From the IMG/VR virus record IMGVR_UViG_3300037467_001931, positions 1 to 64,000 of that record: a stretch of 64,000 nt of DNA; one strand, given 5' to 3'. The notes under the pieces are model-generated. The model had not been told where the DNA came from, did no database searches, and was given only the letters and a program-made list of their open reading frames with translations. Positions 11,894 through 59,666 of the stretch are shown here, in pieces (the stretch's first letter is position 1; each line of letters opens with the position of its first letter). Origin of the DNA: a virus. The position numbers and the translations under genes were made by a program.

Positions 11894-11963
11894 GGTCTTA
11901 CCCCGAAGGGTACCTACGAACGTAGTGAGGAGGTAAAGGATCTAGAAGGCCCAGGAGGTTACT

Positions 11964-12008
11964 GATATCGCCTTCGGCGATCGGCTTCGCCGAGATATTA
12001 TTTTTTAT
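11964..12008 (+). terminator. tandem GC hairpins plus T-run after uvsW
   Basis: ATCGCC-TTC-GGCGAT and TCGGC-TTC-GCCGA, followed by ATATTATTTTTTA. Confidence 0.7.
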
Positions 12009-12029
12009 TATTAATGATTTTTCTTTAAT

Positions 12030-12390: not shown

Positions 12391-12424
12391 CTAGTATATT
12401 TTAATATAAGTAGTATGTGTAATA

Positions 12425-12770: not shown

Positions 12771-12803
12771 AAATTATACTATGATAACTCAAAGTAGTAT
12801 AAT
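12771..12803 (+). promoter_or_regulatory. class-B promoter
   Basis: ATTATAC 12773-12779, N17, GTATAAT 12797-12803. Divergent from the promoter at 12707-12745. Confidence 0.55.
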
Positions 12804-19177: not shown

Positions 19178-19214
19178 AAATAAATTATACTTTTGAAAAA
19201 TGAGGAGGTATAAT
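19176..19214 (+). promoter_or_regulatory. class-B promoter
   Basis: AAAAATAA-ATTATAC (19184-19190)-N17-GTATAAT (19208-19214). Confidence 0.6.
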
Positions 19215-21327: not shown

Positions 21328-22296
21328 ATGGCACATCAGATAGATTTCAGTAATGGTCGGGCAAATATGGCGTTCGTCGGTGATCGGGCAAATATTTGGC
21401 ACGGTCTTGGTCAACAACTCACAGATGAAGCTTCGATAGATGTTTGGAAGGTTGAAGCTGGGATGAACTGGGTGATCGAGAGCTCCCCCATCATCTATGA
21501 CAACGGTGTTCGAGATGGGAATCCATTTCCAATCTATTCTGGGAAGCGAGTACTTTTCAGGTCTGACACGAAAGAAGCTCTTTCCATCGTTTCCAACAAG
21601 TACAATGTAGTTCAACCAGAGGAAGTTCTCGAATTCTTCCGTGATCTTACTGAAGATTTAGGGATGAAAATGAGCACTGCTGGATGCCTCTTCGGTGGTC
21701 GCAAGTTCTGGGCCTTGGCTGACACAGGTCTGGCAGGGAAGGTTCTTGGGGATGATGAAGTTAAGGGATACACTCTTCTCACTTCATCCTGTGATGGTTC
21801 CTCCCCAACGATTGCTCAGTTCACTTCCATTCGGGTGGTGTGCAATAACACTCTGGAGTGGTCTCTTCAAGGATCTTCCAGCAAGAGAGCTTCGGTTCGT
21901 CATCGTCGGGTGTTTTCACCAAGAGACATCAAGGCTTCTCTCGGATTGGTTCATTCTTCTTGGGATGCGTTTATGGATTCCATCACTGTTCTTTCTGAAA
22001 AGAAGGTTACAGATAAAATGGCGAGAAAATTCATCGAAAATCTTCTGGTCAACAAAGGATCAGAAATCACCGATGCTCAGGTGAGAAAGACTGATGCAAT
22101 TTTCGATCTTTTCAAGAACGGAATGGGAGCTGATATGTCTCGGGGAACTCTCTGGGGTGTTGTAAATGGCGTTACCGAATTCGTTGATCATCACTCAGGT
22201 GGTCGAATTGGTGACACGAAACTCTGGAACTCCTGGTATGGGAACGGAGCCACCTTAAAGAATAAGGCATTCGAGAACGCTCTGGCCTTACTCTAA
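21328..22296 (+). CDS. DUF932 / phage-plasmid-like protein (TIGR03299-type)
   Basis: The N-terminus MAHQIDFSNGRANMAFVGDRANIWHGLGQQL and the length fit the DUF932 family as I recall it. The gene is a GC-enriched island. Confidence 0.65.
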   Translation: MAHQIDFSNGRANMAFVGDRANIWHGLGQQLTDEASIDVWKVEAGMNWVIESSPIIYDNGVRDGNPFPIYSGKRVLFRSDTKEALSIVSNKYNVVQPEEVLEFFRDLTEDLGMKMSTAGCLFGGRKFWALADTGLAGKVLGDDEVKGYTLLTSSCDGSSPTIAQFTSIRVVCNNTLEWSLQGSSSKRASVRHRRVFSPRDIKASLGLVHSSWDAFMDSITVLSEKKVTDKMARKFIENLLVNKGSEITDAQVRKTDAIFDLFKNGMGADMSRGTLWGVVNGVTEFVDHHSGGRIGDTKLWNSWYGNGATLKNKAFENALALL

Positions 22297-22520: not shown

Positions 22521-22551
22521 ATTATACTTCTGATTTTCTTTCCGGTATAAT
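22514..22551 (+). promoter_or_regulatory. class-B promoter
   Basis: AAAAATAA-ATTATAC (22521-22527)-N17-GTATAAT (22545-22551). Upstream of the gp45 operon. Confidence 0.6.
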
Positions 22552-22575: not shown

Positions 22576-22803
22576 ATGGAAGAAAATCAAAAGAACTGGG
22601 TTGATCCAAACGTAGAACAAGTCTCGAATATGATGTATTCGAGAATGCTTCATGGATTCAAAAAATATGGTGTTACCACCATGAGGGAAGATATCGACCT
22701 CTTTGGGTGGTTGCAACATCTTCAAGAAGAATTATTGGACGCCGCTATATATATTCAGGCAGCAAAAAACAAAATTATACGTGATCAAATTAAAGAAGTA
22801 TAA
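22576..22803 (+). CDS. hypothetical helical protein
   Basis: 75-aa ORF with RBS GAGGATGATTAT. WLQHLQEELLDAAIYI resembles all-alpha NTP-pyrophosphohydrolase helices (weak). Confidence 0.5.
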   Translation: MEENQKNWVDPNVEQVSNMMYSRMLHGFKKYGVTTMREDIDLFGWLQHLQEELLDAAIYIQAAKNKIIRDQIKEV

Positions 22804-22833
22804 TATAACTTTTAATATTAAGGAAAGGTAATA

Positions 22834-24438: not shown

Positions 24439-24759
24439 ATGGATATTCAAATTTTTTCAATTCTTTTGTCTTTTATTGCGTTTGGTGTTGGATATTATTA
24501 TGGTTATATCAAAGGTAAAATGTTCGTTATCCAACAAACGAATTATTACTATTCATACGCTGATGACCCAAACGCGATAGAATTTTATATAGAAAAGGTT
24601 AGTGAAGAGTTACTTCTATATGAAAAATTAACAAATAATTTTATAGTAAAATTTACAACATTAGAAGAAACCAAAGAATTTCTTCAGAATAAATATCCTG
24701 GAAAGATTGTTTGGATTAAAAAAGAAAATTTACAAAGTGTAGGATTGGATTTATCATGA
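24439..24759 (+). CDS. hypothetical membrane-anchored protein
   Basis: 106-aa ORF with N-terminal TM IFSILLSFIAFGVGYYYGYI. Confidence 0.5.
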   Translation: MDIQIFSILLSFIAFGVGYYYGYIKGKMFVIQQTNYYYSYADDPNAIEFYIEKVSEELLLYEKLTNNFIVKFTTLEETKEFLQNKYPGKIVWIKKENLQSVGLDLS

Positions 24760-25211
24760 CTGTTATTGCTTGGGATGGAAGAATTTTAGCCGCAGATAAA
24801 CGTATGTCAAATGGTGGCCTCATCAATACCATTACTAAAATATTTCGTTTTGGTGATATTGTTGTTGCTACTTGTGGAAGAGTCGATCAAGGATTATCCA
24901 TGGTTGACTGGGTAAAGAATGGAAGGATCATTGAAAAATTTCCAACCACACAACAACTCAGTAATTTTTCCCCTGCTGCAGTTGTTGAAAATGGAAGATT
25001 GTATGTTTATGAAAGTGCACCATACCCATATTTAATAGAAGATCAATTTTGGGCTGCAGGATCAGGAAGAGATTTTGCTTTAGCTGCCATGTTTCTTGGT
25101 AAAACTGCTATTGAAGCAGTGCAGGTGGCCAGCGCTTTTCAGAACGATTGTGGGAATGGATGTGATTGGTTCGATTTTTCTGGAGTGTTAAATAATGTCG
25201 AATCCGTTTGA
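24756..25211 (+). CDS. proteasome/HslV-like Ntn-hydrolase
   Basis: Thr2 follows the initiator Met (MTVIAWDGRILAADKR...KIFRFGD...), plus AAGSGRDFALAAM. This parallels HslV TTIV...AGDGQ... and IAIGSGGPYAQAAA. Confidence 0.55.
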   Translation: MTVIAWDGRILAADKRMSNGGLINTITKIFRFGDIVVATCGRVDQGLSMVDWVKNGRIIEKFPTTQQLSNFSPAAVVENGRLYVYESAPYPYLIEDQFWAAGSGRDFALAAMFLGKTAIEAVQVASAFQNDCGNGCDWFDFSGVLNNVESV

Positions 25212-28077: not shown

Positions 28078-28113
28078 AAAATATTATACTTAGTTGTTTC
28101 GTTAGAGTATAAT
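28078..28113 (+). promoter_or_regulatory. class-B promoter upstream of DNA polymerase
   Basis: ATTATAC 28083-28089, N17, GTATAAT 28107-28113. Confidence 0.6.
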
Positions 28114-30632: not shown

Positions 30633-31169
30633 ATGAAACCTGTAGAATATAGACATGCAGTGAATCCAGACTTCTGTCAAGAGATCATTAATAATTTTGA
30701 TAAATGTGAAATAACATATAGAAAGAAAAAAGAATATTCTTTCAAAGAAATTTCCATGATCGAAAATGAACATATGAGTAAATTAATGGAAGGATTAGTT
30801 CGAAAAGCAGATTATTTTACAACTCTTTTCAAATCCCAAAATAATTTAAAAGTTTTTCCTGATAGATATGGTTATGAAGCAGTTAGAGTTAAGAGGTATG
30901 ATGCAGCAGATCAAGATGAGTTTCCTTGGCACGCCGATGTTATGGATTGGCAATCTGCAAAAAGATTTTTAGTTTGTATGTTTTATCTTAATGATAATTT
31001 TATTGGTGGTGAAACTGATTTTGGTTCAGAAGAAAAAATAAATTATATTATCACACCAGAACAAGGTAAAATTGTTTTATTCACCCCATTCTGGGATAAT
31101 CCCCACCGTGGAAGAAAGGTAATATCAGGTTCAAAATATATTGCAAATGTTTATTTACATCTATTGTAA
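30633..31169 (+). CDS. 2OG-Fe(II) oxygenase (prolyl 4-hydroxylase-like)
   Basis: HxD in FPWHADVMD, distal His in NPHRGRKV, and a Lys/Arg-x-Ser region GSKYIANVY. Confidence 0.68.
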   Translation: MKPVEYRHAVNPDFCQEIINNFDKCEITYRKKKEYSFKEISMIENEHMSKLMEGLVRKADYFTTLFKSQNNLKVFPDRYGYEAVRVKRYDAADQDEFPWHADVMDWQSAKRFLVCMFYLNDNFIGGETDFGSEEKINYIITPEQGKIVLFTPFWDNPHRGRKVISGSKYIANVYLHLL

Positions 31170-34277: not shown

Positions 34278-34748
34278 ATGGAATTCGTAGAAAAGGTAAA
34301 GTTGTTCAACGGTATCGCAGGGACTAAAGAAGAATTTAATGTAAAGATGATTTCTCTTTACACAGGATTAGTTCTTGAAGAAGTTGCAGAAATGCTAGAA
34401 GCTCTTCATATAGATGATCCTGAGGTCGAAGATCTAATTGAATCATTAAATGAATCTTCTCATAGTTTTAAAATAAATGATTTTGAAGCAACAATTGGTT
34501 GTTGTGTAGATAGAAAAGAATTCCTGGATGGTGCTGTTGACGTGGCAGTAGTTGCTTTGGGTGCAGGAGTTTCAATTGGTGCAGATGTTTTGGGTGCCTG
34601 CCATGAAGTTGCTGATTCTAATTTATCCAAATTCCCAATTGTAAATGGTGAACATGTTGTTCTTAAGGATGAAAATGGTAAGATTATGAAACCAGAATCA
34701 TTTCGCAGACCTGAGCTTGGGAAATTCTTGCATCAAATAGAACAATAA
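34278..34748 (+). CDS. mazG: MazG-like nucleoside triphosphate pyrophosphohydrolase
   Basis: All-alpha ORF with metal-binding helix LVLEEVAEMLEAL and LDGAVDVAVVALG...EVADSNLSKF, as in phage MazG proteins. Confidence 0.65.
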   Translation: MEFVEKVKLFNGIAGTKEEFNVKMISLYTGLVLEEVAEMLEALHIDDPEVEDLIESLNESSHSFKINDFEATIGCCVDRKEFLDGAVDVAVVALGAGVSIGADVLGACHEVADSNLSKFPIVNGEHVVLKDENGKIMKPESFRRPELGKFLHQIEQ

Positions 34749-34778
34749 ATATACATATCATTTTAATACAGGTATAAT
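34744..34778 (+). promoter_or_regulatory. class-B-variant promoter; ATG follows the -10 by 6 nt
   Basis: AATAA-ATATAC (34749-54)-N17-GTATAAT (34772-78), then TATTTC, then ATG 34785. Confidence 0.5.
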
Positions 34779-34784
34779 TATTTC

Positions 34785-36113
34785 ATGGTTAAAAAAATTG
34801 TTGCAACAGAAAAATTAAATTGTGAACACCTTCTAGGGATGTTCCTTGACGAAAGTCACTATGATTTACTTGTAGAATCGGATATGGATTTCTACACGCC
34901 ACAGAATATAAATGGTGAAAGTGAAATTCTATTTTCCTTCAGGAAGAATTATTTTACTGAAGAAGAACAAAAGGGTGCTTATGATGGTCTTTTTGCCGCT
35001 GCAACAATTTCTGAAAATCGTGGAATGGCTGCAGGGACTAAGGAAGGATACACAAATACAAATGTGGCTGGTGAACGTCAATTCGTTACCAATTACGAAA
35101 GAGAAATGATGGATGCCATAATGGCTGATGTCAATGCAAAATTAGTTGAAGAAGAAGATTGCATCACCAAAGTTCGTAACAAGTATCCCACTGTTGAATC
35201 TAGAAGGAGATGTGAAGGTAGTTCCATGAATCTCACTTGGGTAATCAATAGAATCAGGAATGGTAAAAAATTATTTGTTTTTGATGATTGGGTTGATTCT
35301 ATAATTCCCCTATCGAAAAAGGAACGTGCAGAAGCGGTTGAGGATGTCAGCACGATGATGTCGCAATCTCATTATGGTAATAAAGTTTTCTCTGGTGTGG
35401 CTGGATTTTATGATCGTTATCCAAGAATTCCATATGGAAGAGCAACTTCCTACACCGAACATAATCCAGAAAAATGGAAGTTGGCATTTCCCTATCTTCA
35501 AAAACTGAGTGCTGCGTATAAGGAACTCATTCCTCTGAAATGGGCAAATCAAAATGAAGCAATTCAAAAACTCGATCCTGAATTTGTTGTGCCTGGAACA
35601 GTATTCACAACAATTACAGTTAATAAAACTTTCAGGACTGCTGCTCATAGGGATGCAGGTGATCTTTCCACAGGGTTCTCCAATCTTTGCGTAATTACTA
35701 ACGGGAAGAAATTTTCCGGTGGGTATTTGATATTCCCTGAGTTCAACGTAGCTATTAATATTCGTCCTGGTGATTTGCTTTTGGTTAACAATCATGAGGG
35801 AATTCATGGAAACACACCAATAGTTCTTGAAGAAGAAGGTGCAGAAAGAATTTCTTTAGTTTGCTATTTCCGTGAAGGAATGTTGGAACTTGGTGAAAAG
35901 AAGTATGAAGACATTCGTAGACAATTTATAAGAGATAGAAAAAATAATGAGAATCATCCATTCTGGAAATTTGGGTGGAATGGTGTTTCTGCTGGTTGGG
36001 AAAGCAGTCAAGAATGGTATGATTATCTTTCCTCAAAAGAAAATGGTGAAAGATATTTAAAAATGTATCATCCAGAAGCAGAAAAGGTTTCTCTAGAGGA
36101 TTTATTTGCGTGA
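34785..36113 (+). CDS. 2OG-Fe(II) dioxygenase, TET/JBP-like (candidate nucleic-acid base hydroxylase)
   Basis: Catalytic core FRTAAHRDAGD (HxD in the AHRD context seen in TET), ...GDLLLVNNHEGIHGNTP (distal His), ...ERISLVCYF (2OG-binding Arg). Confidence 0.55.
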   Translation: MVKKIVATEKLNCEHLLGMFLDESHYDLLVESDMDFYTPQNINGESEILFSFRKNYFTEEEQKGAYDGLFAAATISENRGMAAGTKEGYTNTNVAGERQFVTNYEREMMDAIMADVNAKLVEEEDCITKVRNKYPTVESRRRCEGSSMNLTWVINRIRNGKKLFVFDDWVDSIIPLSKKERAEAVEDVSTMMSQSHYGNKVFSGVAGFYDRYPRIPYGRATSYTEHNPEKWKLAFPYLQKLSAAYKELIPLKWANQNEAIQKLDPEFVVPGTVFTTITVNKTFRTAAHRDAGDLSTGFSNLCVITNGKKFSGGYLIFPEFNVAINIRPGDLLLVNNHEGIHGNTPIVLEEEGAERISLVCYFREGMLELGEKKYEDIRRQFIRDRKNNENHPFWKFGWNGVSAGWESSQEWYDYLSSKENGERYLKMYHPEAEKVSLEDLFA

Positions 36114-37261
36114 GAATTTTAAATATTCATTCCTACCCATTCGGATTGGTTAATAAGGAAGGATCACCGAATGGTGGTGGTGAAAAAGTTCATTTGGATA
36201 TTCATCATTTATTGGAAGAAAATGGTATTGACATTTATTCTTTTTGTTCGGAATCTGATCCTCTTCATGGTGATCGCTGGGTAAAAGTATTACCCAGCGG
36301 TGGGTTGGATCCTTGGAAAAAGAATAAAACACAAATCTATGCTGATATCACAAAGGCAATTAATAAACTCAAACCCGATATTATCATAAATAATGGTTCT
36401 GACAAGTTACTTCGATTAACGAATCATTTGAGGATTCCATCATTATTTGTTGATCATAGAAGCAATGATATCCATAAACTTTACCATGCCGATTTCTTTA
36501 CCAATTCAGCATTTAAAAATCGTGAACTTGGTGGCAAATCTGTGACAGTTTCTTTATATTCTCAACTTACAAAAAATAATGTAATTAAGAAATATTGGGG
36601 AGATAAAGGTTACGAACTTGATGGGTATCTTCAATTTCAATATGTTACTCCTGAACTGGAAAGTTATGAGGTGGCAAAATATAAAACAAAAAACTGTATA
36701 ACAATTGGTAGGCCAGAAACAAATAAGAATCCTCATAGAATTAAGAAATTTGCAGAAAAATATAAACTCGATTATAGGATTATTACGCAACTGCCGGATA
36801 AACCCAAACCAGATACTGAAAAATATTTCAACGAAAAAATAGTGGCGAATCCTGGAGTTTTAAAAAGAACTCATGTAAATATTGGCAGGAAATTCACTAT
36901 GACCATGTTGAAGAATTCCATGTTATATTATTCCACGAGTGAAATAGAATCAGCAGGTATTACAGCATTTGAAAGTCTTTGTCTTGGCGTTCCTCTTGTT
37001 TTATATTCTCCATTGAGATATCATGCTTCACAGATGTTCGCTCCAGATGGAGAAAAGTACTGTTGGGATTATGATAACAAGACAGCGAATCTCGAAGAAT
37101 ATGTTGAACATTGTAAATCTCTTAATTTTGATCAAAGAAGAGAAATCGCAAATTATACCAGAAGTCATAGCAGTAAGAGAATTATTGCCATGAAGATTAT
37201 CCAGCAATTAGATTCGATATATAACAATAAGAAACCAGTAGGATTAGAAGATTATGTGTGA
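36110..37261 (+). CDS. GT-B (GT4-like) glycosyltransferase
   Basis: STSEIESAGITAFESLCLGVPLVL is an E-x7-E donor-binding motif. The GTG start overlaps the dioxygenase stop (GTGA). Confidence 0.6.
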   Translation: MRILNIHSYPFGLVNKEGSPNGGGEKVHLDIHHLLEENGIDIYSFCSESDPLHGDRWVKVLPSGGLDPWKKNKTQIYADITKAINKLKPDIIINNGSDKLLRLTNHLRIPSLFVDHRSNDIHKLYHADFFTNSAFKNRELGGKSVTVSLYSQLTKNNVIKKYWGDKGYELDGYLQFQYVTPELESYEVAKYKTKNCITIGRPETNKNPHRIKKFAEKYKLDYRIITQLPDKPKPDTEKYFNEKIVANPGVLKRTHVNIGRKFTMTMLKNSMLYYSTSEIESAGITAFESLCLGVPLVLYSPLRYHASQMFAPDGEKYCWDYDNKTANLEEYVEHCKSLNFDQRREIANYTRSHSSKRIIAMKIIQQLDSIYNNKKPVGLEDYV

Positions 37262-37379
37262 TGGCCCTCATTCTGGATTTAAAGCTTTAATGTCAGAAAA
37301 AGTTAAGAAGCTTTTAAAAAGTACCGAGGGATTAGAAAAATTAAAAAAGATAATTCGTGATGTATCCAAAAGGAAATGA
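37254..37379 (+). CDS. small coupled ORF (41 aa)
   Basis: It overlaps the glycosyltransferase stop, and its own stop overlaps the next ATG (ATGA at 37376). Confidence 0.35.
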   Translation: MCDGPHSGFKALMSEKVKKLLKSTEGLEKLKKIIRDVSKRK

Positions 37380-38473
37380 AATTGTATAAGCATCTAGAGA
37401 ATAAAGATAAACCATATATAGATTGGCGATTACCAAAAAATCGCATGAAGGGATTTTTGATGTGGCTTGATTGGCGATTGACCTATGGTGATCTTGATCA
37501 TTATGTCTGTAATAATGCTTATCGAGATACAAAATTTTCCCCAACTGGAAAATCAATGACCATAGAACAAGCCATTTGGTTTTCATTGATTTTTGGAATG
37601 ACTTATCAATCAGAAATGGCTTGGGTTATCTATTGGCATTTTCCTAATTTATTGAGTATTAACCTCAAGGAATTAGAAGAATGGAATCTGGAAAACATGG
37701 ATAAGCAAAAGTATGCCAGGGATACCAAATATAATAAGGGAAGAATTGTTGAGCAGGTAAAATCCATTCAGGAAAATGTAGGAAGACATGGCTCTTGTGT
37801 CGGTTGGGTAAATTCATTTCTTGAAGAAAAGGAATCCGATTCTTTTTACTCTGCATATAATTCTGTTATGGAGTTCTATAAATTTGGCAGGATGACTTCA
37901 TGGATTGCCTGTCAAGTTTTATTTGAAACTGCTGATGTCCCTATAAGACCAGATACTCTATTGGCTCATGATCAATCCAGTTGGTCTGTTCGTTCTGGAC
38001 TAATGTTTTTATATAATCGTGATGACAGAGTGGAATCAACTGGAGCAGTTTTCGATAAGAACGATATTCCTTGGATACTGAGTACTGAAAAAGAATTATA
38101 TAAAATTTGTGAAGATTATATAAAGCCAGAAAACCGGAAAATATTTTCAAATTATCTTTTAGAATCACATCTTTGCCAATATAAAAAATTGATGCTGGGT
38201 GGTGATTTTCCAGGACATTCTTCTGGTGATCATGTTTCACGGGCAAATTGGTTATCTTCCAGATGGAAAAATGTTGATTTCTCTGCATTCTATAAAGAAG
38301 CAATTCAGCATCATCACCCATTAGTTAGAGGAAAAGAAGAAAATAAAGAATTGCGCAATATTTGTTGTGATACTGGTCAAATTATAAACATGCATCAAGA
38401 TTATGATTTTATGCCAAATCTATATCTTGAAATGCAAGCAGAAAGTAATAATCTCTCGAATATTTTTGGTTAA
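37376..38473 (+). CDS. uncharacterised Trp-rich helical protein; tentative aGPT-pyrophosphorylase-like DNA-base transferase
   Basis: 365-aa ORF translationally coupled to the dioxygenase-glycosyltransferase genes. The functional guess rests only on gene context and composition. Confidence 0.4.
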   Translation: MKLYKHLENKDKPYIDWRLPKNRMKGFLMWLDWRLTYGDLDHYVCNNAYRDTKFSPTGKSMTIEQAIWFSLIFGMTYQSEMAWVIYWHFPNLLSINLKELEEWNLENMDKQKYARDTKYNKGRIVEQVKSIQENVGRHGSCVGWVNSFLEEKESDSFYSAYNSVMEFYKFGRMTSWIACQVLFETADVPIRPDTLLAHDQSSWSVRSGLMFLYNRDDRVESTGAVFDKNDIPWILSTEKELYKICEDYIKPENRKIFSNYLLESHLCQYKKLMLGGDFPGHSSGDHVSRANWLSSRWKNVDFSAFYKEAIQHHHPLVRGKEENKELRNICCDTGQIINMHQDYDFMPNLYLEMQAESNNLSNIFG

Positions 38474-38508
38474 ATAAATTATACAAAGAGAAATATTTTA
38501 TGTATAAT
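38472..38508 (+). promoter_or_regulatory. class-B promoter driving tRNA-Gln
   Basis: AAATAA-ATTATAC (38478-84)-N17-GTATAAT (38502-08). The tRNA 5' end is at 38520. Confidence 0.6.
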
Positions 38509-38519
38509 TTTCTTTTAGT

Positions 38520-38593
38520 TGGGGAATGGTCTAATGGTATGACTCCGGAATTTGACTCCGGCAATGTAGGTTCGATTCCTGCTTCCTCTGCCA
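38520..38593 (+). tRNA. tRNA-Gln (anticodon UUG)
   Basis: Manual cloverleaf: acceptor TGGGGAA/TTCCTCT (position 1:72 is U:U), D arm GTCT..TGAC. Anticodon stem CCGGA/TCCGG with loop ATTTGAC. T arm GTAGG-TTCGATT-CCTGC, discriminator G, encoded CCA. Confidence 0.85.
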
Positions 38594-38689
38594 AATAGAG
38601 TTTTGGGCAGCTACTCTGAAATCCTCAGACAAATTCCTGCCTTTCGTCTCATTAAAACGATAAAACAACTGATATAATAAAGGAAAGAA

Positions 38690-39925
38690 ATGAAAGACGA
38701 AATACGTGTTTGTGTTGTTGGTGTTGGTAATTGCGCTAAATCCCTAATTGAAGGAGTTGCATTATATAATAGAACTGGAAGAACAGATGGTCTTGCTTTT
38801 TCAGAAATTGGTGGATATACACCAAGCCATATAAAATTCGTAATGGCATTAGACGTTGATGGTCGCAAAGTTGGTCATAGACTAAGAAGTGCAATTTATT
38901 CAAAACCAAATTGTGCAATGGATATGCAAGTTACTGATTTCGATTTAGAATTAGTTTGTGGTGATACCCGAGTTCTTCATGGTAAGCAGCTTGATGGAAT
39001 TGCTCCTCATATGGAACTTTTACCAGAGGATGAAGCATTTCTCCCAGTTAAAGGAGTTGAAATTACCAAGGAAGAATTCATCAATGAGTTACGTAAAAAT
39101 AAAGTAGACATCGTTGTTAATTATCTTCCTGTTGGTTCACAAGAAGCTACAGAGTTTTATCTAGATGCCTGCATAGAAGCTAAAATTCCATTTGTTAATT
39201 GCATTCCTGTATTTATTGTCTCTGATCCTGTTTGGGGGCAGAAACTAATTGATGCACAAATCCCTGCAATTGGAGATGACATGAGAAGCCAATTAGGAGC
39301 TTCTGTATTATCTCAAGCTCTTCAAGAATTATTCTTCAATCGCGGTATGAATATCAAATTCCATGAACAAACAAATCATGGTGGAAATACTGACTTTGCC
39401 AATATGATGGATCAAAGTCGTCTGGCATCCAAGAAAATTTCCAAGGAAAATGTTATTCGTTCACAAAACGATATTCGAGGAATTCCTGTTCCAAAGAATG
39501 GAATTTATGCAGGACCATCATCCTACATTCCTTATCACGGTGACAACAAGGTTGCTCATTTTAGGATTGAAGCTGAGGGGTTTGGTGGAGCACCAGTTAC
39601 TTTTGATGCACGTCTTTCTGTTCAAGATTCACCAAATTCAGCTGGTGTTGTTATAGATGCAATTCGTTATCTTCAAGTTGCCGTGGAAATGGGAATGATT
39701 GGCCCTCTTTTTGGGCCGAGCGCTGCTACTCAAAAGACTCCCCCAAAACAAATGATGATTCAAGATGCACATGAAGAGTGTGTTGCTTTATCTCAACGTA
39801 GATGGACTAAAATTACAAAAGAAAAGAATAATATTTTTAACTATATTGATTTTGAAGTTAGAAACGAACCATATCAACCTATAGATGTAAAAACTCTTGC
39901 AGATATTATCGAAAGGTCTAAGTGA
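38690..39925 (+). CDS. ino1: myo-inositol-1-phosphate synthase (Ino1 family)
   Basis: IRVCVVGVGNCAKSLIEGV, KFVMALDVDGRKVG, VDIVVNYLPVGSQEATEFY, PFVNCIPVFIVSDPVWGQK, PAIGDDMRSQLGAS, GGNTDFANM...RLASKKISK and DSPNSAGVVIDAIR are colinear with mycobacterial Ino1 as I recall it. Confidence 0.9.
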   Translation: MKDEIRVCVVGVGNCAKSLIEGVALYNRTGRTDGLAFSEIGGYTPSHIKFVMALDVDGRKVGHRLRSAIYSKPNCAMDMQVTDFDLELVCGDTRVLHGKQLDGIAPHMELLPEDEAFLPVKGVEITKEEFINELRKNKVDIVVNYLPVGSQEATEFYLDACIEAKIPFVNCIPVFIVSDPVWGQKLIDAQIPAIGDDMRSQLGASVLSQALQELFFNRGMNIKFHEQTNHGGNTDFANMMDQSRLASKKISKENVIRSQNDIRGIPVPKNGIYAGPSSYIPYHGDNKVAHFRIEAEGFGGAPVTFDARLSVQDSPNSAGVVIDAIRYLQVAVEMGMIGPLFGPSAATQKTPPKQMMIQDAHEECVALSQRRWTKITKEKNNIFNYIDFEVRNEPYQPIDVKTLADIIERSK

Positions 39926-40089
39926 TGATTACAATTAGAACTTGTAGTGATTGGATTAGAATTTATAAAGATGATTCCCGAATTTTTGAAGGTCATAGTG
40001 TAAAATCAAGTGATCTTTATGGAATCTTAAATTGTTTTGAAGAAACCGATTATAAAGAAATTTCAGATGAAGAAATGGAGAATTATTAA
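39925..40089 (+). CDS. small coupled ORF (54 aa)
   Basis: Its ATG shares the A of the ino1 TGA, and its TAA shares an A with the next ATG. Confidence 0.45.
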   Translation: MITIRTCSDWIRIYKDDSRIFEGHSVKSSDLYGILNCFEETDYKEISDEEMENY

Positions 40090-40436
40090 TGGGAGTTGAT
40101 CATTCCACAATATTTGGTATTGGTAAGTTGTTTGAAAATTCACATAAAGCAGAAGAATATTTTAGAGAAAAGTATAAATTAACTGAAGAACAAGAAGAAG
40201 AACTGGATAAGATTGGATTAGAAGAATTTTTGTCGTGTGCCGGACCGGGTGAAGATGATTTACCATTTGGTGAAACCATAAATTGCTATTCCGGTGATGG
40301 GTTTTGGATAGGATATTCATTAAACACATATGATGAAATTGTTGATCTAAAGTTATCCATTGAATATGGTGAATCACAGTGGAGAAAGGTATTTGGTGAT
40401 GAACCTGAAATAATTGATCAAGTGAGAGTTTGGTGA
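40089..40436 (+). CDS. hypothetical acidic protein
   Basis: 115-aa ORF in the coupled chain. Confidence 0.55.
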   Translation: MGVDHSTIFGIGKLFENSHKAEEYFREKYKLTEEQEEELDKIGLEEFLSCAGPGEDDLPFGETINCYSGDGFWIGYSLNTYDEIVDLKLSIEYGESQWRKVFGDEPEIIDQVRVW

Positions 40437-40759
40437 TGGATAGAGAAATTAAAGTATATGCCAGATTCGATATGTTAAATAACACTATCGATATGTTTGT
40501 TCGTTCTAAGGAAGATGGGATTTTAAGAATAGCTCCATCTTTACTTCCTGAAACATTTTCACCGGCAGAACCTGGTAAAACGCAATCTCCTACATTAACC
40601 ATAGCTCCTGAATGCGGACAGGAATTAATGGATCAATTGTGGTCTTGTGGATTGAGACCAAAAGCAGGTAGTGGATCAGCTGGTTCATTGGCTGCAACAG
40701 AAAATCATTTGAAAGATTTACGAAAAATTACATTTAATTTACTTAAGATTGAAAACTAA
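40436..40759 (+). CDS. hypothetical protein
   Basis: ATG 40436 overlaps the upstream TGA (TGATG). The ORF track lists TTG 40430. Confidence 0.55.
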   Translation: MDREIKVYARFDMLNNTIDMFVRSKEDGILRIAPSLLPETFSPAEPGKTQSPTLTIAPECGQELMDQLWSCGLRPKAGSGSAGSLAATENHLKDLRKITFNLLKIEN

Positions 40760-41139
40760 TGAAGATAAATACATATGATATAGATGGCGTGATTTTTATG
40801 GGGAAGGAATTGACTGGAGTTTATCCTGGCCCATTTGACATTATCATTACTGGTCGCTCCTATGAAGAACGCCCAGAGACAGAAAAGATGTTAGCTGAAC
40901 GTGGAATTGATAATGTTGTATATTTCAATTTAACAAAATTCGATGATAAAACAAGGGAGGATTCGGGATATCATAAAGGTATAACTATTGCTCATCTAAA
41001 GACTGTTGGTTACGAAATTGGTATACATTTTGAAGATGATCCAATTCAGGCAGGAGTAATAAAAATTATACATCCAGAATTAAATATTGTATTATTACAA
41101 CATAACTTAATGACCATGGAGAATGTAAGGCATCTATGA
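40759..41139 (+). CDS. HAD-superfamily phosphatase (small, capless)
   Basis: Motif I YDIDGVI, motif II ITGRS, motif IV HFEDDP. The layout resembles the T4 Pnkp phosphatase domain (DVDGTL, VSGRES, IDDR). Confidence 0.6.
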   Translation: MKINTYDIDGVIFMGKELTGVYPGPFDIIITGRSYEERPETEKMLAERGIDNVVYFNLTKFDDKTREDSGYHKGITIAHLKTVGYEIGIHFEDDPIQAGVIKIIHPELNIVLLQHNLMTMENVRHL

Positions 41140-41375
41140 AAAGTGTTAGAGCAAGAATACAATCTGAAATTCGAATAGATGTTAAAGGGATTTCGGATGA
41201 AGAGGCACTCAGAATCACCACGGCAATTCAAAAAATGGTGCTTTGTGGTATAGAAGTTGTTGATTCAACTATTAACAAGGAATATAAAATTTTCATCATT
41301 ACACCTGTCGTGTATAGAGATATAGATACAATTTTAATGGAATTTTCTTTAGTTACGGGATTACAAATTATATGA
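41136..41375 (+). CDS. hypothetical protein
   Basis: 79-aa ORF with an ATGA overlap upstream. Confidence 0.5.
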   Translation: MKSVRARIQSEIRIDVKGISDEEALRITTAIQKMVLCGIEVVDSTINKEYKIFIITPVVYRDIDTILMEFSLVTGLQII

Positions 41376-41455
41376 GAAATATCGTAGGTATTATCTCTGT
41401 TACTCAAGGGAATTTTTTTTGGTTTATTTCTTATTTTATGTTTAGGGGATTATGA
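41372..41455 (+). CDS. possible 27-aa coupling ORF
   Basis: ATGA overlaps at both ends keep the coupling chain unbroken. Confidence 0.25.
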   Translation: MRNIVGIISVTQGNFFWFISYFMFRGL

Positions 41456-41652
41456 TGAGCACAGAAAGAAAGATAGTTAGAAGGGGAGATATTTTCAAAT
41501 CCAGTAGATTTGGTTGGGTTAAATTCGTTGGGTTTGATTATTATCATGGTCAAAAGACTGCTGAATTATATAGTTCCGAATATAGGGATAGATATTATCC
41601 ATGGCCAGCTGATATTGAAAAAGAAAATAATGTGGAGCTTGTTGATCTATGA
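41452..41652 (+). CDS. hypothetical protein
   Basis: 66-aa ORF in the coupled chain. Confidence 0.5.
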   Translation: MMSTERKIVRRGDIFKSSRFGWVKFVGFDYYHGQKTAELYSSEYRDRYYPWPADIEKENNVELVDL

Positions 41653-42203
41653 GAAAAATTGTTGCAATATCAGGAAGACCAGGAACAGGTAAATCGACTT
41701 TAATTAATATTTTCTTGAATAAATGGTGTTGGGAAAACGTTAGCCCTCTTCCTCTAGTTAATGGGTTATACTGCAAAGAATTAGATTTATATGTGTTAGG
41801 AAAGTATGAAGCTGGGGAAGTATTTCCTGGAACAGATAAACTTTCCATGGCTGTTCAACCAGCTGTTGAACAATTCATTAAATCAAATTCTTCAAATGTT
41901 TTATTTGAAGGTGATCGCTTAACGAATATGAAGTTCTATGACTTTCTTTTATCCCTCCCAGATACAGAAGTTGAACTCGTTGTTATTAAAGCAAAGGAAG
42001 ACATTCTCACAGAAAGATATTCCGAAAGGGGATCAGATCAGTCAGAAACTTTCCTGAAAGGAAGAGAAACAAAAATAAAGAATATTGAAAATAATATGGA
42101 TTATTGGGACAACATTACTACTCTCTGGAATAATAACAAAGATGATCAACAAAAGATACTGAGCCATCTTGATCTTTGGTTGTGTGATAAGGTGAATGTA
42201 TAA
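41649..42203 (+). CDS. P-loop kinase of polynucleotide-kinase type
   Basis: Walker A ISGRPGTGKST, Walker B-like VLFEGDR. Lid motif LTERYSERGS resembles T4 Pnkp LVKRNSKRGT. Confidence 0.55.
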   Translation: MRKIVAISGRPGTGKSTLINIFLNKWCWENVSPLPLVNGLYCKELDLYVLGKYEAGEVFPGTDKLSMAVQPAVEQFIKSNSSNVLFEGDRLTNMKFYDFLLSLPDTEVELVVIKAKEDILTERYSERGSDQSETFLKGRETKIKNIENNMDYWDNITTLWNNNKDDQQKILSHLDLWLCDKVNV

Positions 42204-42778
42204 TGATTAGTGATAATAATCCAGATAGTGTTCCTGATTGGGTAAAAAATTCAAAATATCCATCAACACCACCAACTCCGGAAGAATGGGGTAGGGCATT
42301 TCCTAATTTAATATTTGTTGATAAAGAAAAATTAGCAAGGGATCAAAAGTGGCACGATCGTTGGTTTAAAAGAGCAGAAGAAGTTTCAACTTGGTCAAAA
42401 GACCCCTCCACAAAGGTTGGTGCTGTTTTTGTAAACGAAGAAAAACATAGAGAATTATCTGCAGGATATAATGGATTCCCCCGAGGTATCAAGGATGATG
42501 ATCGATTAAATAATCGTGAGATAAAGTATAAGCTTGTTGTCCATGCTGAAATGAATGGAATTTTTAATGCTGTGAATAATGGTGTAACTCTTGACGGATG
42601 TTCCTTATATGTTTGGGGATTACCAATTTGTTCAGAATGTGCCAAAGGAATTATTCAAGTTGGTGTTAAGAAAATTTATGTAAAGAAACAATTTGTTGAT
42701 AATGAAAGGTGGAAAGAATCATGGAAACTGACTCAACAGATATTTAGTGAAGCAGAAATAAAAGTTATTGTAATATAA
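42203..42778 (+). CDS. cd: dCMP deaminase
   Basis: Zinc motifs VVHAEMN and PICSECAK, with an approximately 60-aa N-terminal extension. Confidence 0.9.
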   Translation: MISDNNPDSVPDWVKNSKYPSTPPTPEEWGRAFPNLIFVDKEKLARDQKWHDRWFKRAEEVSTWSKDPSTKVGAVFVNEEKHRELSAGYNGFPRGIKDDDRLNNREIKYKLVVHAEMNGIFNAVNNGVTLDGCSLYVWGLPICSECAKGIIQVGVKKIYVKKQFVDNERWKESWKLTQQIFSEAEIKVIVI

Positions 42779-45238: not shown

Positions 45239-46642
45239 ATGAAAAATTTTAAAGAATTTTTAGAAGAATCAAAGGCAAATAATGTTCTTTCTGATAAATT
45301 GAAGAATATGAATTCACTTAAGAAATTCAGTTACCCTACTCCTGAGGAAAGACGAGCACAATTAGCAAAAGAAAAAGAAAAGAAAGATGTTAAGGAATCA
45401 GAAGATCTTGATGAGTCAGATGGCGTTAAATCAGGTGGTGTAGGTGGATATGCTAAGGCAACTACTTCAAAAGGAATTAAAAGAGACACAACAGATTCTT
45501 CGAAATTTGATAAAAGAACCGATGAATTAGTTCTTTCTGGTGACCACGAAAGCTTATTAAAGCATCTATCGACTCATGTCAATGGGAAAAGTAGAAAAAG
45601 AGATGCTTATATTGCTAAATTAAAGAATTCTATCACCAGTAAGATGAAAAAAGAATCATTGGAATATCTCGATGAAAGAACAAATCAAGAGCACGAATTC
45701 ATAATGCAATCACTTGCTGATAAAGATATCAATTCCCATATTAAAGATGGCAAAGTGGTTGTTCATAAAGATAATGTAGCAAAAGCTAAATCACAATTGA
45801 AGAAGATGGGTCATGAAATGCAAGTTGTCCATGAAGGATTCGAAGAATTAGAAGAAGCAATGGTTGGGCATACAACAAAAAGTTTATCAAAGTATGTAAA
45901 ATCACTTGGGTGGACTCTTGTCAGAACTGATGGTGGCCACGATGTTTACAAGCACCCAAAATCAGTTAAAAATCTCCCAATCCCAAGACATGCCGGAGAA
46001 CTATCTAGGCCCACAGTAGCGAAGATGTTAAAAAGAGCAGAATTTAGAGAAGGGGAAGAAATGTTATCGTTTAAGGAATTTATTACAGAAGATCAAGAAT
46101 GTCAAATTGATGAATCATATAAGAAAAAATATGAAACGGCTCCAGATCGTGTCAAGAGAGTTGCTGACGAAATGGCCAGATTAAGAAAGATGAGCAAATC
46201 TGATCTAATTAGGACATTTCCATCAAGGTTAAATACAAACCATTTAAAGAGTGAGCCAAAGGATATTATTATAGGTGGGCATTTGGAGACAAAATTTTCT
46301 CACAAAGATCTGCGAGCTCACGATAAACATTTCTTTGGTGAATCAACCGAAGTCGTTGAAGATCAAGAGGATTTAATGGAAGATCTTCATGATAGACTTT
46401 CAACTCATATTCGTAATATGCGTAATGATGGTCATCACGTTGTAATTACCGACAGAGGCAGTGATGGTCGTTCTGCAAAATTTGTTTCTACCAAGGGTGG
46501 TATAAAGAGATTACATACTATAACAATGAATAGTATTAAACAAGAAAGAATTGGTGGGAAAGATAAAGAAGAAGAATCTCAGGAAACAGAAAAGAGAGGT
46601 AGAGGTCGTCCAGCCGGAAGTAAGTCTGGAGCAAGAGCTTAA
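45239..46642 (+). CDS. Lys/Glu-rich protein with embedded HicA-like domain and C-terminal AT-hook
   Basis: YVKSLGWTLVRTDGGHDVYKHPKSVKNLPIPRHAGELSRPTVAKMLKRA matches the HicA pattern (G-[GS]-H ... PRH ... ILKQ). The C-terminus KRGRGRPAGSK is an AT-hook. Confidence 0.55.
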   Translation: MKNFKEFLEESKANNVLSDKLKNMNSLKKFSYPTPEERRAQLAKEKEKKDVKESEDLDESDGVKSGGVGGYAKATTSKGIKRDTTDSSKFDKRTDELVLSGDHESLLKHLSTHVNGKSRKRDAYIAKLKNSITSKMKKESLEYLDERTNQEHEFIMQSLADKDINSHIKDGKVVVHKDNVAKAKSQLKKMGHEMQVVHEGFEELEEAMVGHTTKSLSKYVKSLGWTLVRTDGGHDVYKHPKSVKNLPIPRHAGELSRPTVAKMLKRAEFREGEEMLSFKEFITEDQECQIDESYKKKYETAPDRVKRVADEMARLRKMSKSDLIRTFPSRLNTNHLKSEPKDIIIGGHLETKFSHKDLRAHDKHFFGESTEVVEDQEDLMEDLHDRLSTHIRNMRNDGHHVVITDRGSDGRSAKFVSTKGGIKRLHTITMNSIKQERIGGKDKEEESQETEKRGRGRPAGSKSGARA

Positions 46643-49392: not shown

Positions 49393-49430
49393 AAAATAAA
49401 TTATACTTAGACACTCGTTTAAAGTATAAT
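49393..49430 (+). promoter_or_regulatory. class-B promoter; the primase ATG follows the -10 by 6 nt
   Basis: AAAATAA-ATTATAC (49400-06)-N17-GTATAAT (49424-30), then TTCGCT, then ATG 49437. Confidence 0.55.
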
Positions 49431-50813: not shown

Positions 50814-51749
50814 ATGACAGGAATTAAAGCAAAAGTTGTCGCAGACAGCATTTCCAAGAAATTCAAGATTAGATTAATTACACTACAACTAAGATACCCA
50901 AGATTTATCCATGCAGAACTTATGACTCACAGAGTCTTTTCAAGAAATGCTTCTAGTTCGAGAGCAATCCCTGTGATGAAAATGTTAAAACAAGTTTGGA
51001 ATGATCCTGCAATGCCTGTTTATTGGGGAGAGAATAAGGTAGGTATGCAAGCAACTAAGGATGTCAAAGGAATAAAGTTGTGGATGAATAAATTCCTTTG
51101 GAAAACTGCATCAAAGGTAGCGGTTTGTTTTTCCTTTTTGATGCATAAATTTAATCTCCATAAGCAACTTGCAAATAGAATTACCGAACCATGGCAATAT
51201 ATTTCTGTAATTTTAACCTCTACAGAATGGGATAATTTCTTTGAATTAAGAGACCATCCAGCAGCCCAACCAGAAATACAAGAATTGGCTGGAGAAATAA
51301 AAGATGCTATTGAATACTCTTCAACCCCTAAAGAATTAATGGAAGGTGAATGGCATCTCCCATATATCAATGACGAAGAAAGAAAAATATATTCTCTAGA
51401 AACTTTGAAAAAACTTTCGACAGCAAGGAATGCGAGAGTTTCGTATTTAACCCATGATGGTAATTCACCAGATCCATTTAAAGATATTAAACTCCATGAT
51501 GATTTGGTTGTTTCGGTGCCAATACATGCTTCACCTACAGAACATGTAGCTACTCCAGCCGATGATGATAAATTCCATAAGAATTTCAGGGGATGGATTC
51601 AATATAGAGAAGAAGTTGAACGCAATGCTTATTTTTCAAAATGTTTACGTGAAGGTAAAACTTTAACTGTTTCCACATCTTCTCCCAACCAGGTATTTGT
51701 TACCAATGTTACATACACCACAAAGGAAATAGAATGCTTTTTAAAATAA
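50814..51749 (+). CDS. thyX: flavin-dependent thymidylate synthase ThyX
   Basis: ThyX motif region LMTHRVFSRNASSSRAIP, with a C-terminal extension. Confidence 0.8.
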   Translation: MTGIKAKVVADSISKKFKIRLITLQLRYPRFIHAELMTHRVFSRNASSSRAIPVMKMLKQVWNDPAMPVYWGENKVGMQATKDVKGIKLWMNKFLWKTASKVAVCFSFLMHKFNLHKQLANRITEPWQYISVILTSTEWDNFFELRDHPAAQPEIQELAGEIKDAIEYSSTPKELMEGEWHLPYINDEERKIYSLETLKKLSTARNARVSYLTHDGNSPDPFKDIKLHDDLVVSVPIHASPTEHVATPADDDKFHKNFRGWIQYREEVERNAYFSKCLREGKTLTVSTSSPNQVFVTNVTYTTKEIECFLK

Positions 51750-59144: not shown

Positions 59145-59666
59145 ATGGATACCGTTTTTGTAGATATGGATGGTGTGTTGGCAGACTTTTCTACTGAATA
59201 TTTATCTTGGCTTAATGGAAGAAAGGAACGCACCAGAGATTTATTCATCGAAGCTACGGAAGAATATAGAATATTTTCAAAGTTGAAACCAATGCCAAAT
59301 AGTCATATTCTCATTAATAAATTATTAAAGTTGGAAGAATATGGTTATAATATAGAAATATTATCCAGTTTAAATCGTGATGATATTGATCAAGCAAAGA
59401 ATTCAGCAAAAGATAAAGATAATTGGTTACTTGAAAGAAATATTCATTGGAAAAGAAATTTCGTTAAATCTGGTAAAGAAAAGTCAAAATACGCAACAAC
59501 AAAATCTATTTTAATCGATGATGATATGTTTAATGTTTGTGATTTCAGAAATTTTGGAGGAAGAGCAATACTCCATTACGACGCTTTGCCGCAAGTGACA
59601 ATAGATTTATTGGATTTAAATATAGAAGAAATACTAAAGGAATCAGATGAAGATAACAGGCACTAG
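59145..59666 (+). CDS. 5'(3')-deoxyribonucleotidase (HAD, NT5C-like)
   Basis: Motif I VFVDMDGVLADF, distal LIDDD. Confidence 0.65.
   Translation: MDTVFVDMDGVLADFSTEYLSWLNGRKERTRDLFIEATEEYRIFSKLKPMPNSHILINKLLKLEEYGYNIEILSSLNRDDIDQAKNSAKDKDNWLLERNIHWKRNFVKSGKEKSKYATTKSILIDDDMFNVCDFRNFGGRAILHYDALPQVTIDLLDLNIEEILKESDEDNRH

Follow-up and report, generated by a model that had tools for sequence, protein, structure and literature searches.

The stretch of DNA analysed here (the window; 64,000 nucleotides, positions 1–64,000 of IMG/VR record IMGVR_UViG_3300037467_001931) is part of the genome of a marine T4-like phage and has a G+C content of 32.7%. An earlier note, made from the sequence alone, had drawn attention to an operon that is headed by a gene for the enzyme MIPS (myo-inositol-1-phosphate synthase) and continues through a HAD-family phosphatase and a P-loop kinase to a dCMP deaminase. 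Upstream of it on the same strand lie genes for a TET/JBP-family dioxygenase, a glycosyltransferase (GT) and an amino-acid:DNA transferase (AADT) (Table 1). Judging from these gene families, we think it on balance probable that the operon makes up the latter half of a thymidine-hypermodification cluster, which would extend from about 34750 to 42778 and so beyond the interval that had been flagged.

The T4-like genes of the window encode gp23, a scaffold protein, UvsW, gp46/47-like proteins, the clamp loader, RegA, DNA ligase, a family B polymerase, UvsX and the gp41 helicase, and its major capsid protein is 66–68% identical to the capsid proteins of Pelagibacter phage HTVC008M and Methylophilales phage Melnitz. 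A megablast search of the region against cultured phages gave no match; the exact MIPS protein is also recorded in JGI and Logan assemblies, the longest carrier contig measuring 154 kb.

Table 1. Features of the cluster and associated elements, with positions in the window
Feature	Position	Strand	Evidence or remark
Promoter-like TATACA-N17-TATAAT	34750..34778	+	Ahead of the TET/JBP-GT-AADT unit; motif class shared with the element before the tRNA
TET/JBP-family 2-oxoglutarate (2OG)/Fe(II) 5-methylpyrimidine dioxygenase, 442 aa; predicted to convert T to 5-hydroxymethyluracil (5hmU)	34785..36113	+	PF12851
GT4-type (GT-B) glycosyltransferase; E-x7-E motif; variable tailoring slot	36110..37261	+	Weak PF00534 and PF13439 matches
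AADT (formerly aGPT-Pplase2)	37376..38473	+	PF18724; between GT and tRNA
Palindromic promoter-like motif ATTATAC-N15-GTATAAT	38478..38508	.	Ahead of the tRNA and MIPS unit
tRNA-Gln (UUG)	38520..38593	+	
MIPS, Ino1 type, 411 aa	38690..39925	+	PF01658, 1gr0 and TIGR03450 matches
Three small overlapping open reading frames (ORFs; 54, 115, 107 aa)	39925..40759	+	Without detectable homologues in related loci
Capless (C0) HAD phosphatase, 126 aa; MIPS partner; predicted inositol-1-phosphate phosphatase	40759..41139	+	Motifs, AlphaFold2 model, co-occurrence
Small overlapping ORFs (79, 27, 66 aa)	41136..41652	+	Without detectable homologues in related loci
P-loop nucleotide kinase 3, 184 aa; predicted 5hmU DNA kinase	41649..42203	+	PF18751
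dCMP deaminase, 191 aa; HAE and PICSEC zinc motifs	42203..42778	+	PF00383 at 68.7 bits; phrog_174
ThyX-like thymidylate synthase (accessory)	50814..51749	+	PF02511 at 34.7 bits

From MIPS to the dCMP deaminase, nine consecutive genes overlap their predecessors by 1–4 nt, with each start placed over the preceding stop by 1 or 4 nt (in order, GTGA/TGATG, TAATG, TGATG, TAATG, four times ATGA, and TAATG). The overlap chain of the earlier note is borne out at every junction, and its tRNA-Gln and deaminase were likewise recovered. Overlaps are common in the window (37 of 88 same-strand junctions, 42%); this run of nine is the longest and the next longest has four.

The assignment of MIPS to the Ino1 family also stands. 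Every motif that had been quoted is present in the ORF, and the protein covers the full 107-position model of PF01658 at 92 bits (cut-off 27). Residues 3–356 align with residues 14–353 of the Mycobacterium tuberculosis Ino1 chain (PDB code 1gr0; E = 1.8e-77), with the GVGNCA motif aligned, and the two proteins are about 50% identical. Against the NCBIfam equivalog model of mycothiol-type INO1 (TIGR03450) the score is 287 bits, under the cut-off of 638, and we therefore regard the protein as a family member and not as a mycothiol-type orthologue. Residues D197, K284, D310 and K346 of the mycobacterial enzyme, which are reportedly essential, align with D197, K287, D313 and K349 of the window protein, all four of them conserved and invariant across four phage MIPS sequences. 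It is very unlikely that the enzyme makes a cyclitol other than myo-inositol-1-phosphate, in the manner of Ari2, which forms a five-membered cyclitol phosphate from fructose-6-phosphate. The five-membered-cyclitol-phosphate synthase 6k96 is indeed its second-best solved relative (E = 1.1e-43), and the shortfall against the actinobacterial model would fit as well, but the protein resembles genuine Ino1 far more strongly (264 bits as against 153, aligned over the full length), keeps the four aligned residues, and has cellular homologues of 67% identity that are annotated as inositol-3-phosphate synthase. The simplest reading is that MIPS, as its sequence predicts, makes inositol-1-phosphate from glucose-6-phosphate.

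The HAD protein carries motifs I–IV. The elements DxDGV, TGR, K and EDD are invariant across homologues, and residues D7, D9, T31, K73, D93 and D94 vary little or not at all in sets of 22 and 42 sequences. Its AlphaFold2 model (predicted local distance difference test score 93.2) has a Rossmannoid core without a cap domain. A sequence-profile search of the family against the PDB returned nothing usable; the Foldseek neighbours of the model are the phosphatase domain of T4 Pnkp, Pnkp1 and the lipin/Nir2 LNS2 domain [template-modelling (TM) scores of 0.55–0.64, E of about 2e-3], and the description of this protein as Pnkp-like is fair at the level of the fold (TM about 0.6). It also matches phrog_415, labelled 'polynucleotide kinase'.

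The kinase had been described as of the polynucleotide kinase (Pnk) type, a label that has to be withdrawn. It belongs to PF18751 (Ploopntkinase3; 37.4 bits, cut-off 27), with a Walker A motif GRPGTGKST, and against PDB chains it gives P-loop matches only, none of them to T4 Pnk. Homologues occur in Caulobacter phage Cr30, in Melnitz and in actinophages, including Rhodococcus phage Tonitrus, a phage with a thymine-hypermodification cluster. According to Burke et al., phage TET clusters commonly include a P-loop nucleotide kinase, which resembles the 5-hmdU kinases of phages phiW-14, SP10, ViI and M6. By its family, the window kinase is of the type found in phage TET and thymidine-hypermodification clusters, not a Pnk.

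Of the upstream genes, that for the dioxygenase encodes a match to PF12851 at 90.8 bits (cut-off 34.9), and the HxD...H iron ligands and the 2OG-binding arginine are legible in its translation (AHRD, HGN and RISLVCYFR). Its gene context, with a kinase and an AADT as neighbours, is like that of the T-dioxygenase clade, whose TET-type members are linked to P-loop kinases and AADTs (PMC13229309). No gene for a C5-methyltransferase or a ThyA-like hydroxymethylase was detected within the window, which, together with the presence of ThyX, fits the incorporation of ordinary T that is oxidised after replication. The AADT, which the earlier note had overlooked, matches PF18724 over residues 60–227 (66 bits, cut-off 26.2). 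In 16 sequences its E263 and C267 do not vary, and in the alignment their counterparts in ViI gp247 are E282 and C287; a Cys and a Glu are essential in AADT according to Lee et al. (PMC8989533). The GT falls below the cut-offs of both of its Pfam families and finds only a weak match, to CapJ, in the PDB. A GT-B/GT4 fold as such would not tell MshA-like enzymes from DNA-GT-like ones. In relatives the slot of this gene holds either an FkbM-type methyltransferase or, as in Cr30 and in contigs L021 and L025, a TAGT-like GT.

Distribution and gene contexts of the MIPS–HAD pair

A scan of IMG/VR seeded with MIPS found at least 495 viral contigs with a relative, the 80 best of which were analysed together with three cultured loci (83 loci). 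Among cultured phages MIPS occurs only in 16 Stenotrophomonas phage (Menderavirus) records, Cr30 and Ralstonia phage RP13, where it is 43–52% identical to the window protein and has the same HAD close downstream each time. The ino1 genes of these phages were already annotated and have been listed only as a bacteria-like acquired gene (PMC9025141). The cultured-phage records with MIPS, 19 in number, are exactly those with a HAD homologue. In Cr30 the genes for TET/JBP, AADT, a TAGT-like GT, MIPS, HAD and kinase follow the order of the window, and contig L087 keeps this order as well.

HAD is found in 70 of the 83 loci and follows MIPS in 57 of the 66 viral loci with enough downstream sequence, whereas the kinase is found in only ten of the 83. 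When one genome per prokaryotic species was scanned with a HAD profile, 13 loci were obtained and MIPS lay immediately upstream in all 13; most of these are phage contigs binned into metagenome-assembled genomes, and two are cellular. A third cellular locus was found through a MIPS of 67% identity and not through the HAD profile. The cellular pairs lie between prolyl-tRNA synthetase, PurT and BrkB genes on an Endozoicomonas contig, among teichoic-acid, GT2 and UDP-glucose dehydrogenase genes on a Coriobacteriales contig, and, with the MIPS of 67% identity, on a 317-kb contig of Ca. Desulfarcum epimagneticum (L101, 8001–16518) at the head of genes for an APS kinase, four sulfotransferases and a GFO/IDH/MocA oxidoreductase. 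The last cluster may encode a pathway to a sulfated cyclitol.

Since the pair recurs in three cellular contexts that are not concerned with DNA, we regard it as a self-contained inositol-making unit whose product is used by unrelated enzymes, and for the same reason the substrate of HAD is most simply free inositol-1-phosphate. The simplest reading is that MIPS and HAD together would yield free myo-inositol. The new cyclitol-based metabolite that the earlier note had entertained survives in part: the pair would provide a free cyclitol, most simply myo-inositol, for varied downstream enzymes. Whatever its bearing on DNA, this HAD would be a new, non-IMPase family of inositol-monophosphate phosphatases, shared by bacteria and phages.

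The same observations make it hardly tenable that the kinase and HAD are a split T4 Pnkp-like pair of 5'-kinase and 3'-phosphatase that heals the ends of broken tRNA or DNA for the RNA ligase at 7078–8148, with MIPS unrelated to them, as had also been proposed. HAD does have its nearest fold in the T4 Pnkp phosphatase domain and does match phrog_415, and the window does contain an Rnl-type RNA ligase; the kinase, however, is a PF18751 protein with no sequence match to Pnk structures, HAD tracks MIPS (19 of 19 cultured records, 13 of 13 prokaryotic loci) and not the kinase, the bacterial pairs have no kinase or ligase nearby, and the ligase lies 30 kb away on the opposite strand. The cellular contexts argue against end healing and, less strongly, against an action of HAD on DNA-linked phosphate.

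Five architectures recur around the pair. Type A, that of the window, runs TET/JBP, GT or FkbM, AADT, MIPS, HAD and kinase. Type B has a ThyA-like gene, dCMP deaminase, MIPS, HAD, an HMUDK_hel-like gene, a gene for a protein of 355 residues that is of unknown type and a C5-methyltransferase, and type C contains the unknowns of type B reordered, with an FkbM methyltransferase. In type D the order is GCH1, MIPS, HAD, QueC, DpdA and QueE. Type E, on contigs with a family A polymerase, has HMUDK_hel and P-loop kinase, AADT, TAGT or FkbM, MIPS, HAD and a ThyA-like gene. A dCMP deaminase, the enzyme that ends the window operon, is in many other loci encoded immediately upstream of MIPS. Some MIPS loci have a family A instead of a family B DNA polymerase, and the link between the MIPS–HAD pair and modification clusters is therefore not only a matter of T4-type synteny. 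The window MIPS is 72–75% identical to type B proteins as against 49–57% to several of type A, which indicates that the cassette and its neighbours have been reshuffled.

Taking as thymidine-hypermodification markers AADT, PF18751 kinase, HMUDK_hel proteins, TET/JBP and ThyA-like genes, we found such markers within 5 kb of MIPS in 30 of the 38 loci with at least 4 kb of sequence on both flanks; the other eight have QueC/DpdA-like genes, and no locus has neither. A second sample, seeded with the RP13 MIPS, gave 45 further loci with the same types of neighbour throughout, except for one fragment of 2 kb. The association is also seen from the side of the AADT: in a scan seeded only with its clade (45 distinct genes, 24–63% identity), MIPS is the next gene in 34 of 35 distinct members with at least 2.5 kb downstream. 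Where at least 4.5 kb is available (24 loci), MIPS is present in 23, HAD in 21 and the kinase in 22, and TET/JBP lies upstream of AADT in 26 of 30 loci. Between those two genes, among 30 loci, a GT (six loci) and an FkbM methyltransferase (13 loci) are mutually exclusive, which would fit an adduct with free hydroxyls open to the tailoring of a polyol.

These counts bear on the possibility, which we consider unlikely, that the pair is an auxiliary metabolic module making inositol for purposes other than DNA (as an osmolyte, for envelope remodelling or by diversion of glucose-6-phosphate) and is merely placed where nucleotide-metabolism and early genes gather. The production of a free metabolite by the same pair in cellular genomes would agree with it, as would the fact that most carriers are related T4-like phages with conserved gene order, and the variety of the neighbouring modification systems would fit indifference to them. 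Yet none of the 38 full-flank loci, and none of the 45 more, stands apart from modification genes, the fragment aside; the pair is wedged among such genes in several orders, also alongside the other type of polymerase; and AADT remains coupled to MIPS down to 24% identity. Moreover, the T4-like phages HTVC008M and Melnitz are outside the MIPS matches, though Melnitz has the kinase.

Clusters of type D are of the kind found in Menderavirus. They occur in L001 (Mendera, 7092–12618) and also in L029, L038, L044, L065 and L096, with no AADT or kinase nearby, and their DpdA-like protein has a DSGG[FL]Q motif. The position of MIPS–HAD inside a 7-deazaguanine cluster hints that inositol is linked to deazaguanine modification too.

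Two protein families usually flank MIPS–HAD in L004–L009, L048, L053, L154–L183 and others. One, of about 355 residues (U355), has invariant GDSHS and GNID motifs and no Pfam match; the other, HMUDK_hel-like and of about 350–425 residues, matches PF18723 weakly and has an invariant E-x3-C-Q-F that resembles the E-x3-C-Q-Y of AADT. The pair is adjacent in the Aeromonas phages 44RR2.8t (160539–162809), 31 and Aes012, which are T4-like and outside the MIPS matches. That the two families might be divergent AADTs or kinases was considered and rejected (hhalign profile–profile probabilities of at most 3%), and their profiles found nothing usable in the PDB.

Proposed pathway and its alternatives

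We propose, as the reading that we hold to be somewhat more probable than its denial, that T in the DNA of this phage is converted to 5hmU, phosphorylated and substituted with inositol that the phage makes, glycosyl or methyl tailoring being optional. The dCMP deaminase, through dUMP for the thymidylate pool, and ThyX would feed dTTP, and ordinary T would be replicated into DNA. The TET/JBP dioxygenase would then oxidise T in DNA to 5hmU, and the P-loop kinase would phosphorylate its hydroxyl to give 5-phosphomethyl-dU (5-PmdU). Using Cys267 and Glu263, the AADT would expel the phosphate by way of a Cys–C6 adduct and an exocyclic methylene and add a nucleophile. MIPS and HAD would meanwhile convert glucose-6-phosphate to free myo-inositol, which would be this nucleophile, O-linked in the way of serine in ViI, to form a cyclitol-ether derivative of thymine. 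Finally, the GT4 enzyme here, or the FkbM O-methyltransferase in relatives, would tailor the free hydroxyls. We infer the enzymatic activities, the nucleophile and the final adduct from the observed family memberships, catalytic motifs and gene linkage.

Three considerations lead us to inositol as the nucleophile: its synthesis is the only small-molecule biosynthesis among the five type A core genes; this AADT clade is almost never without MIPS; and one AADT uses a hydroxyl nucleophile, in a family whose substrates have diversified. ViI gp247 adds the serine hydroxyl to the exocyclic methylene formed from 5-phosphomethyl-dU, giving an ether (PMC8989533), and the range of the family takes in glycine, serine, putrescine and 1,3-diaminopropane. 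An inositol-containing modification of nucleic acid that extends the TET/JBP–GT module had been the first suggestion of the earlier note. Gene association favours it strongly; the AADT, the main gene that connects the parts, had been missed, and the kinase had been mislabelled.

Several points weigh against this proposal. Because the loci were found through their similarity and share a phylogenetic relationship, their counts are not counts of independent events. Types B, C and D have MIPS–HAD without a recognisable AADT or PF18751 kinase; the presence of the cassette in such clusters and in cellular genomes suggests a generic inositol supply, so that linkage does not fix the chemistry of attachment. 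Nine of the 66 loci do not have the 126-residue HAD. One lineage, L103 = L137 (7458–10468), has FkbM, AADT (63% identical to that of the window), HAD and kinase, with neither MIPS nor TET/JBP in the surrounding 8 kb; it alone shows HAD clearly separated from MIPS. The match of Cys and Glu to ViI gp247 comes from a MAFFT alignment at about 20–27% identity, and a pairwise comparison of the window kinase with ViI gp243 gave no similarity (BLASTP E = 2.8; the gp243 copy lacks its first residues). A profile of 13 members of the AADT clade finds no PDB chain at E ≤ 1, PaMx11 gp46 (8Z2M) included, and we therefore take the clade to be divergent. To our knowledge, no AADT uses a polyol, and that the likely hosts do not synthesize inositol is probable as far as we know but is an assumption.

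Inositol might instead enter the modification at another step, although we regard this as improbable: the AADT would add an ordinary amino acid, and inositol or inositol-1-phosphate would serve as the acceptor of the GT4 enzyme, as with MshA or PimA, or as a phosphodiester-linked group, while HAD might dephosphorylate a DNA-linked intermediate. According to the literature, the GT4 enzyme MshA takes inositol-3-phosphate as its acceptor and phage DNA glycosyltransferases resemble MshA. However, a GT is present in only six of the 30 AADT loci, with a methyltransferase in its place in 13, and is thus not part of the core; nor was a nucleotidyltransferase or CDP-alcohol transferase seen beside the cluster. 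For HAD the evidence is divided: its nearest folds (T4 Pnkp, Pnkp1 and lipin) act on phosphates bound to polymers or membranes, and L103/L137 retains it with AADT and kinase in a locus that has no MIPS, whereas the cellular contexts point to an action on free sugar phosphate. The occurrence of MIPS–HAD beside systems without an AADT would suit this alternative as well.

Carried over to cultured phages, the proposal that the AADT attaches inositol gives a more tentative prediction, to which we assign slightly less than even confidence: that the DNA of Cr30, RP13 and related phages contains 5-(myo-inosityl-O-methyl)uracil, made by the AADT clade and then glycosylated or O-methylated, with inositol conjugates of deazaguanine implied for phages of the Menderavirus type. 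From the formulae (258.085 + 180.063 − 18.011), the predicted nucleoside C16H24N2O11 has a monoisotopic mass of 420.138. It is isobaric with the base J nucleoside, and mass alone would therefore not identify it; if the prediction is true, the adduct could be mistaken for a hexose on 5hmU in screens that use only mass, glucosylated 5hmU being isobaric with it. The prediction is directly testable because Cr30, a standard transducing phage of Caulobacter, has the whole module.

Known thymidine hypermodifications append amino acids or polyamines made by the host. The cluster described here differs in that it seems to encode, with two enzymes, its own source of a carbocyclic polyol, and the cassette was seen in about 170 fetched viral loci, from the at least 495 contigs with a MIPS relative, beside at least three DNA-modification toolkits. 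Inositol on DNA, if confirmed, would be the first cyclitol-bearing nucleobase and a new handle for restriction evasion and for enzymatic labelling of DNA. We found no mention of inositol or MIPS in a DNA-modification role in the searchable literature on hypermodification by TET, AADT and kinase or on deazaguanines, and searches for a tie between MIPS or inositol and either the modification of phage DNA or auxiliary metabolic genes brought up nothing relevant; the statement of the earlier note that MIPS has no characterized role in a lytic phage agrees with the searchable literature. The annotation of ino1 in phages is already known, and what would be new is the inositol cassette in a cluster of the 5hmU–kinase–AADT type and the class of adduct that its genes predict.

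Other features of the operon and window

The small ORFs between the enzymes of the operon have no detectable homologues among the 83 related loci, and a close relative carries different small ORFs at these positions; we treat them as filler or as genes particular to the lineage. The genes of 54, 115, 107, 126, 79, 66, 184 and 191 residues were also called independently on the source contig, and the 27-residue ORF was not; of the two connector ORFs named in the earlier note, that of 54 residues is thus retained by both and that of 27 is not. A minus-strand ORF of 146 residues at 40162–40602, favoured by a greedy ORF picker, was dropped for the plus-strand ORFs of 115 and 107 residues because the independent calls support the latter.

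The same TATACA-N17-TATAAT element precedes both units, that of TET/JBP, GT and AADT and that running from the tRNA and MIPS to the deaminase. The second copy (38480–38508) lies inside the palindrome ATTATAC-N15-GTATAAT, which has 21 matches in the window with at most one mismatch against 1.5 expected, a number reached by none of 100 shuffles. Copies at 9137–9167, 12773–12803, 19184–19214, 22521–22551, 22774–22804, 28083–28113, 34750–34778, 38478–38508 and 49400–49430 illustrate its distribution; copies lie directly 5' of many genes, including those for DNA polymerase, TET/JBP and the tRNA. The palindrome may represent a class of phage promoters, or else a dimeric regulator may use it as its operator. 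The 'class-B promoter' placed before the tRNA-Gln in the earlier note is probably this promoter-like element. A generic σ70 scan of the window showed no overall enrichment (44 found, 41.7 expected). A terminator scan was likewise not enriched over shuffles, and two plus-strand terminator-like matches inside MIPS are probably due to chance.

Further genes of the window may be recorded briefly. On the minus strand, the genes for a nicotinamide phosphoribosyltransferase (PF04095, PF18127) and for a PRPP-synthetase-like protein make up an NAD-salvage pair (3931–6474), which adjoins the Rnl-type RNA ligase already mentioned, a protein with a PHA02142 OB domain (7078–8148, minus strand). A protein of 322 residues is assigned to DUF932 at 184 bits (21328–22296), and an ORF of 151 residues between clamp-loader subunits has a marginal match to a proteasome subunit (24756–25211; PF00227, 25.6 bits). 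Directly after the DNA polymerase lies a small 2OG-Fe(II) oxygenase (30633–31169; PF13640), which is kept in the relative L087. Just 5' of TET/JBP is a MazG/PRA-PH-like protein of 156 residues (34278–34748), and the same region of Cr30 has a phosphoribosyl-ATP diphosphatase-like gene too. A protein of 467 residues with an embedded HicA-toxin domain (45239–46642; PF07927, residues 218–268) follows an ORF of 638 residues without a Pfam match. An NT5C-like 5'-deoxynucleotidase of the HAD family is encoded at 59145–59666; its homologue adjoins MIPS in L014, where the usual 126-residue HAD is absent, and in L025, where that HAD is also present.

Comparison with known systems

One of the closest characterized parallels is the 5-NeOmdU pathway of phage ViI, which comprises the 5-hmdU DNA kinases gp67 and gp243, the serine:DNA transferase gp247 and the pyridoxal phosphate (PLP)-dependent decarboxylase gp226 (PMC8989533). 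In both systems 5hmU in DNA would be the substrate of a P-loop kinase and an AADT. The closest characterized homologues of the window AADT include ViI gp247 (about 27% identity over the N-terminal 57%), whose essential Cys and Glu are conserved in the window protein and whose nucleophile is a hydroxyl, so that an ether results; over its C-terminal half, in contrast, the window protein is unrelated to gp247 at the BLAST level. The source of 5hmU would also differ, being TET/JBP after replication here and a dUMP hydroxymethylase in ViI. The window cluster has no PLP decarboxylase; it has MIPS–HAD and a slot for a tailoring GT or methyltransferase. A second likeness is to the phage 5mYOX clusters (PMC13229309; PMC8256090), in which TET/JBP, a P-loop kinase, an AADT and a GT occur together with no C5-methyltransferase nearby, although these papers make no mention of inositol or MIPS.

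For the inositol side, the early part of the mycothiol and phosphatidylinositol routes of actinobacteria (Ino1, the GT4 enzymes MshA and PimA, and a phosphatase) offers a likeness, in that the window has an Ino1-type MIPS, a GT4 enzyme and a phosphatase in one neighbourhood. The two differ in that the window MIPS falls under the TIGR03450 cut-off, the GT is not conserved with MIPS, no MshB, MshC or MshD genes were seen, and the context is one of phage DNA modification. Another parallel is the arabinosyl-5-hydroxycytosine of phages RB69 and DLP3, for which a phage sugar-phosphate isomerase and a small HAD-type phosphatase, much as MIPS and HAD would do here, supply an unusual building block (PMC13326640). 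That block, however, is arabinose, which is attached to 5-hydroxycytosine by glycosyltransferases, with no AADT or kinase involved (PMC13326640). Among the phages that carry ino1 themselves, Cr30 shares with the window the order TET, AADT, MIPS, HAD and kinase, whereas Menderavirus has the MIPS–HAD pair in a cluster of GCH1, QueC, DpdA and QueE.

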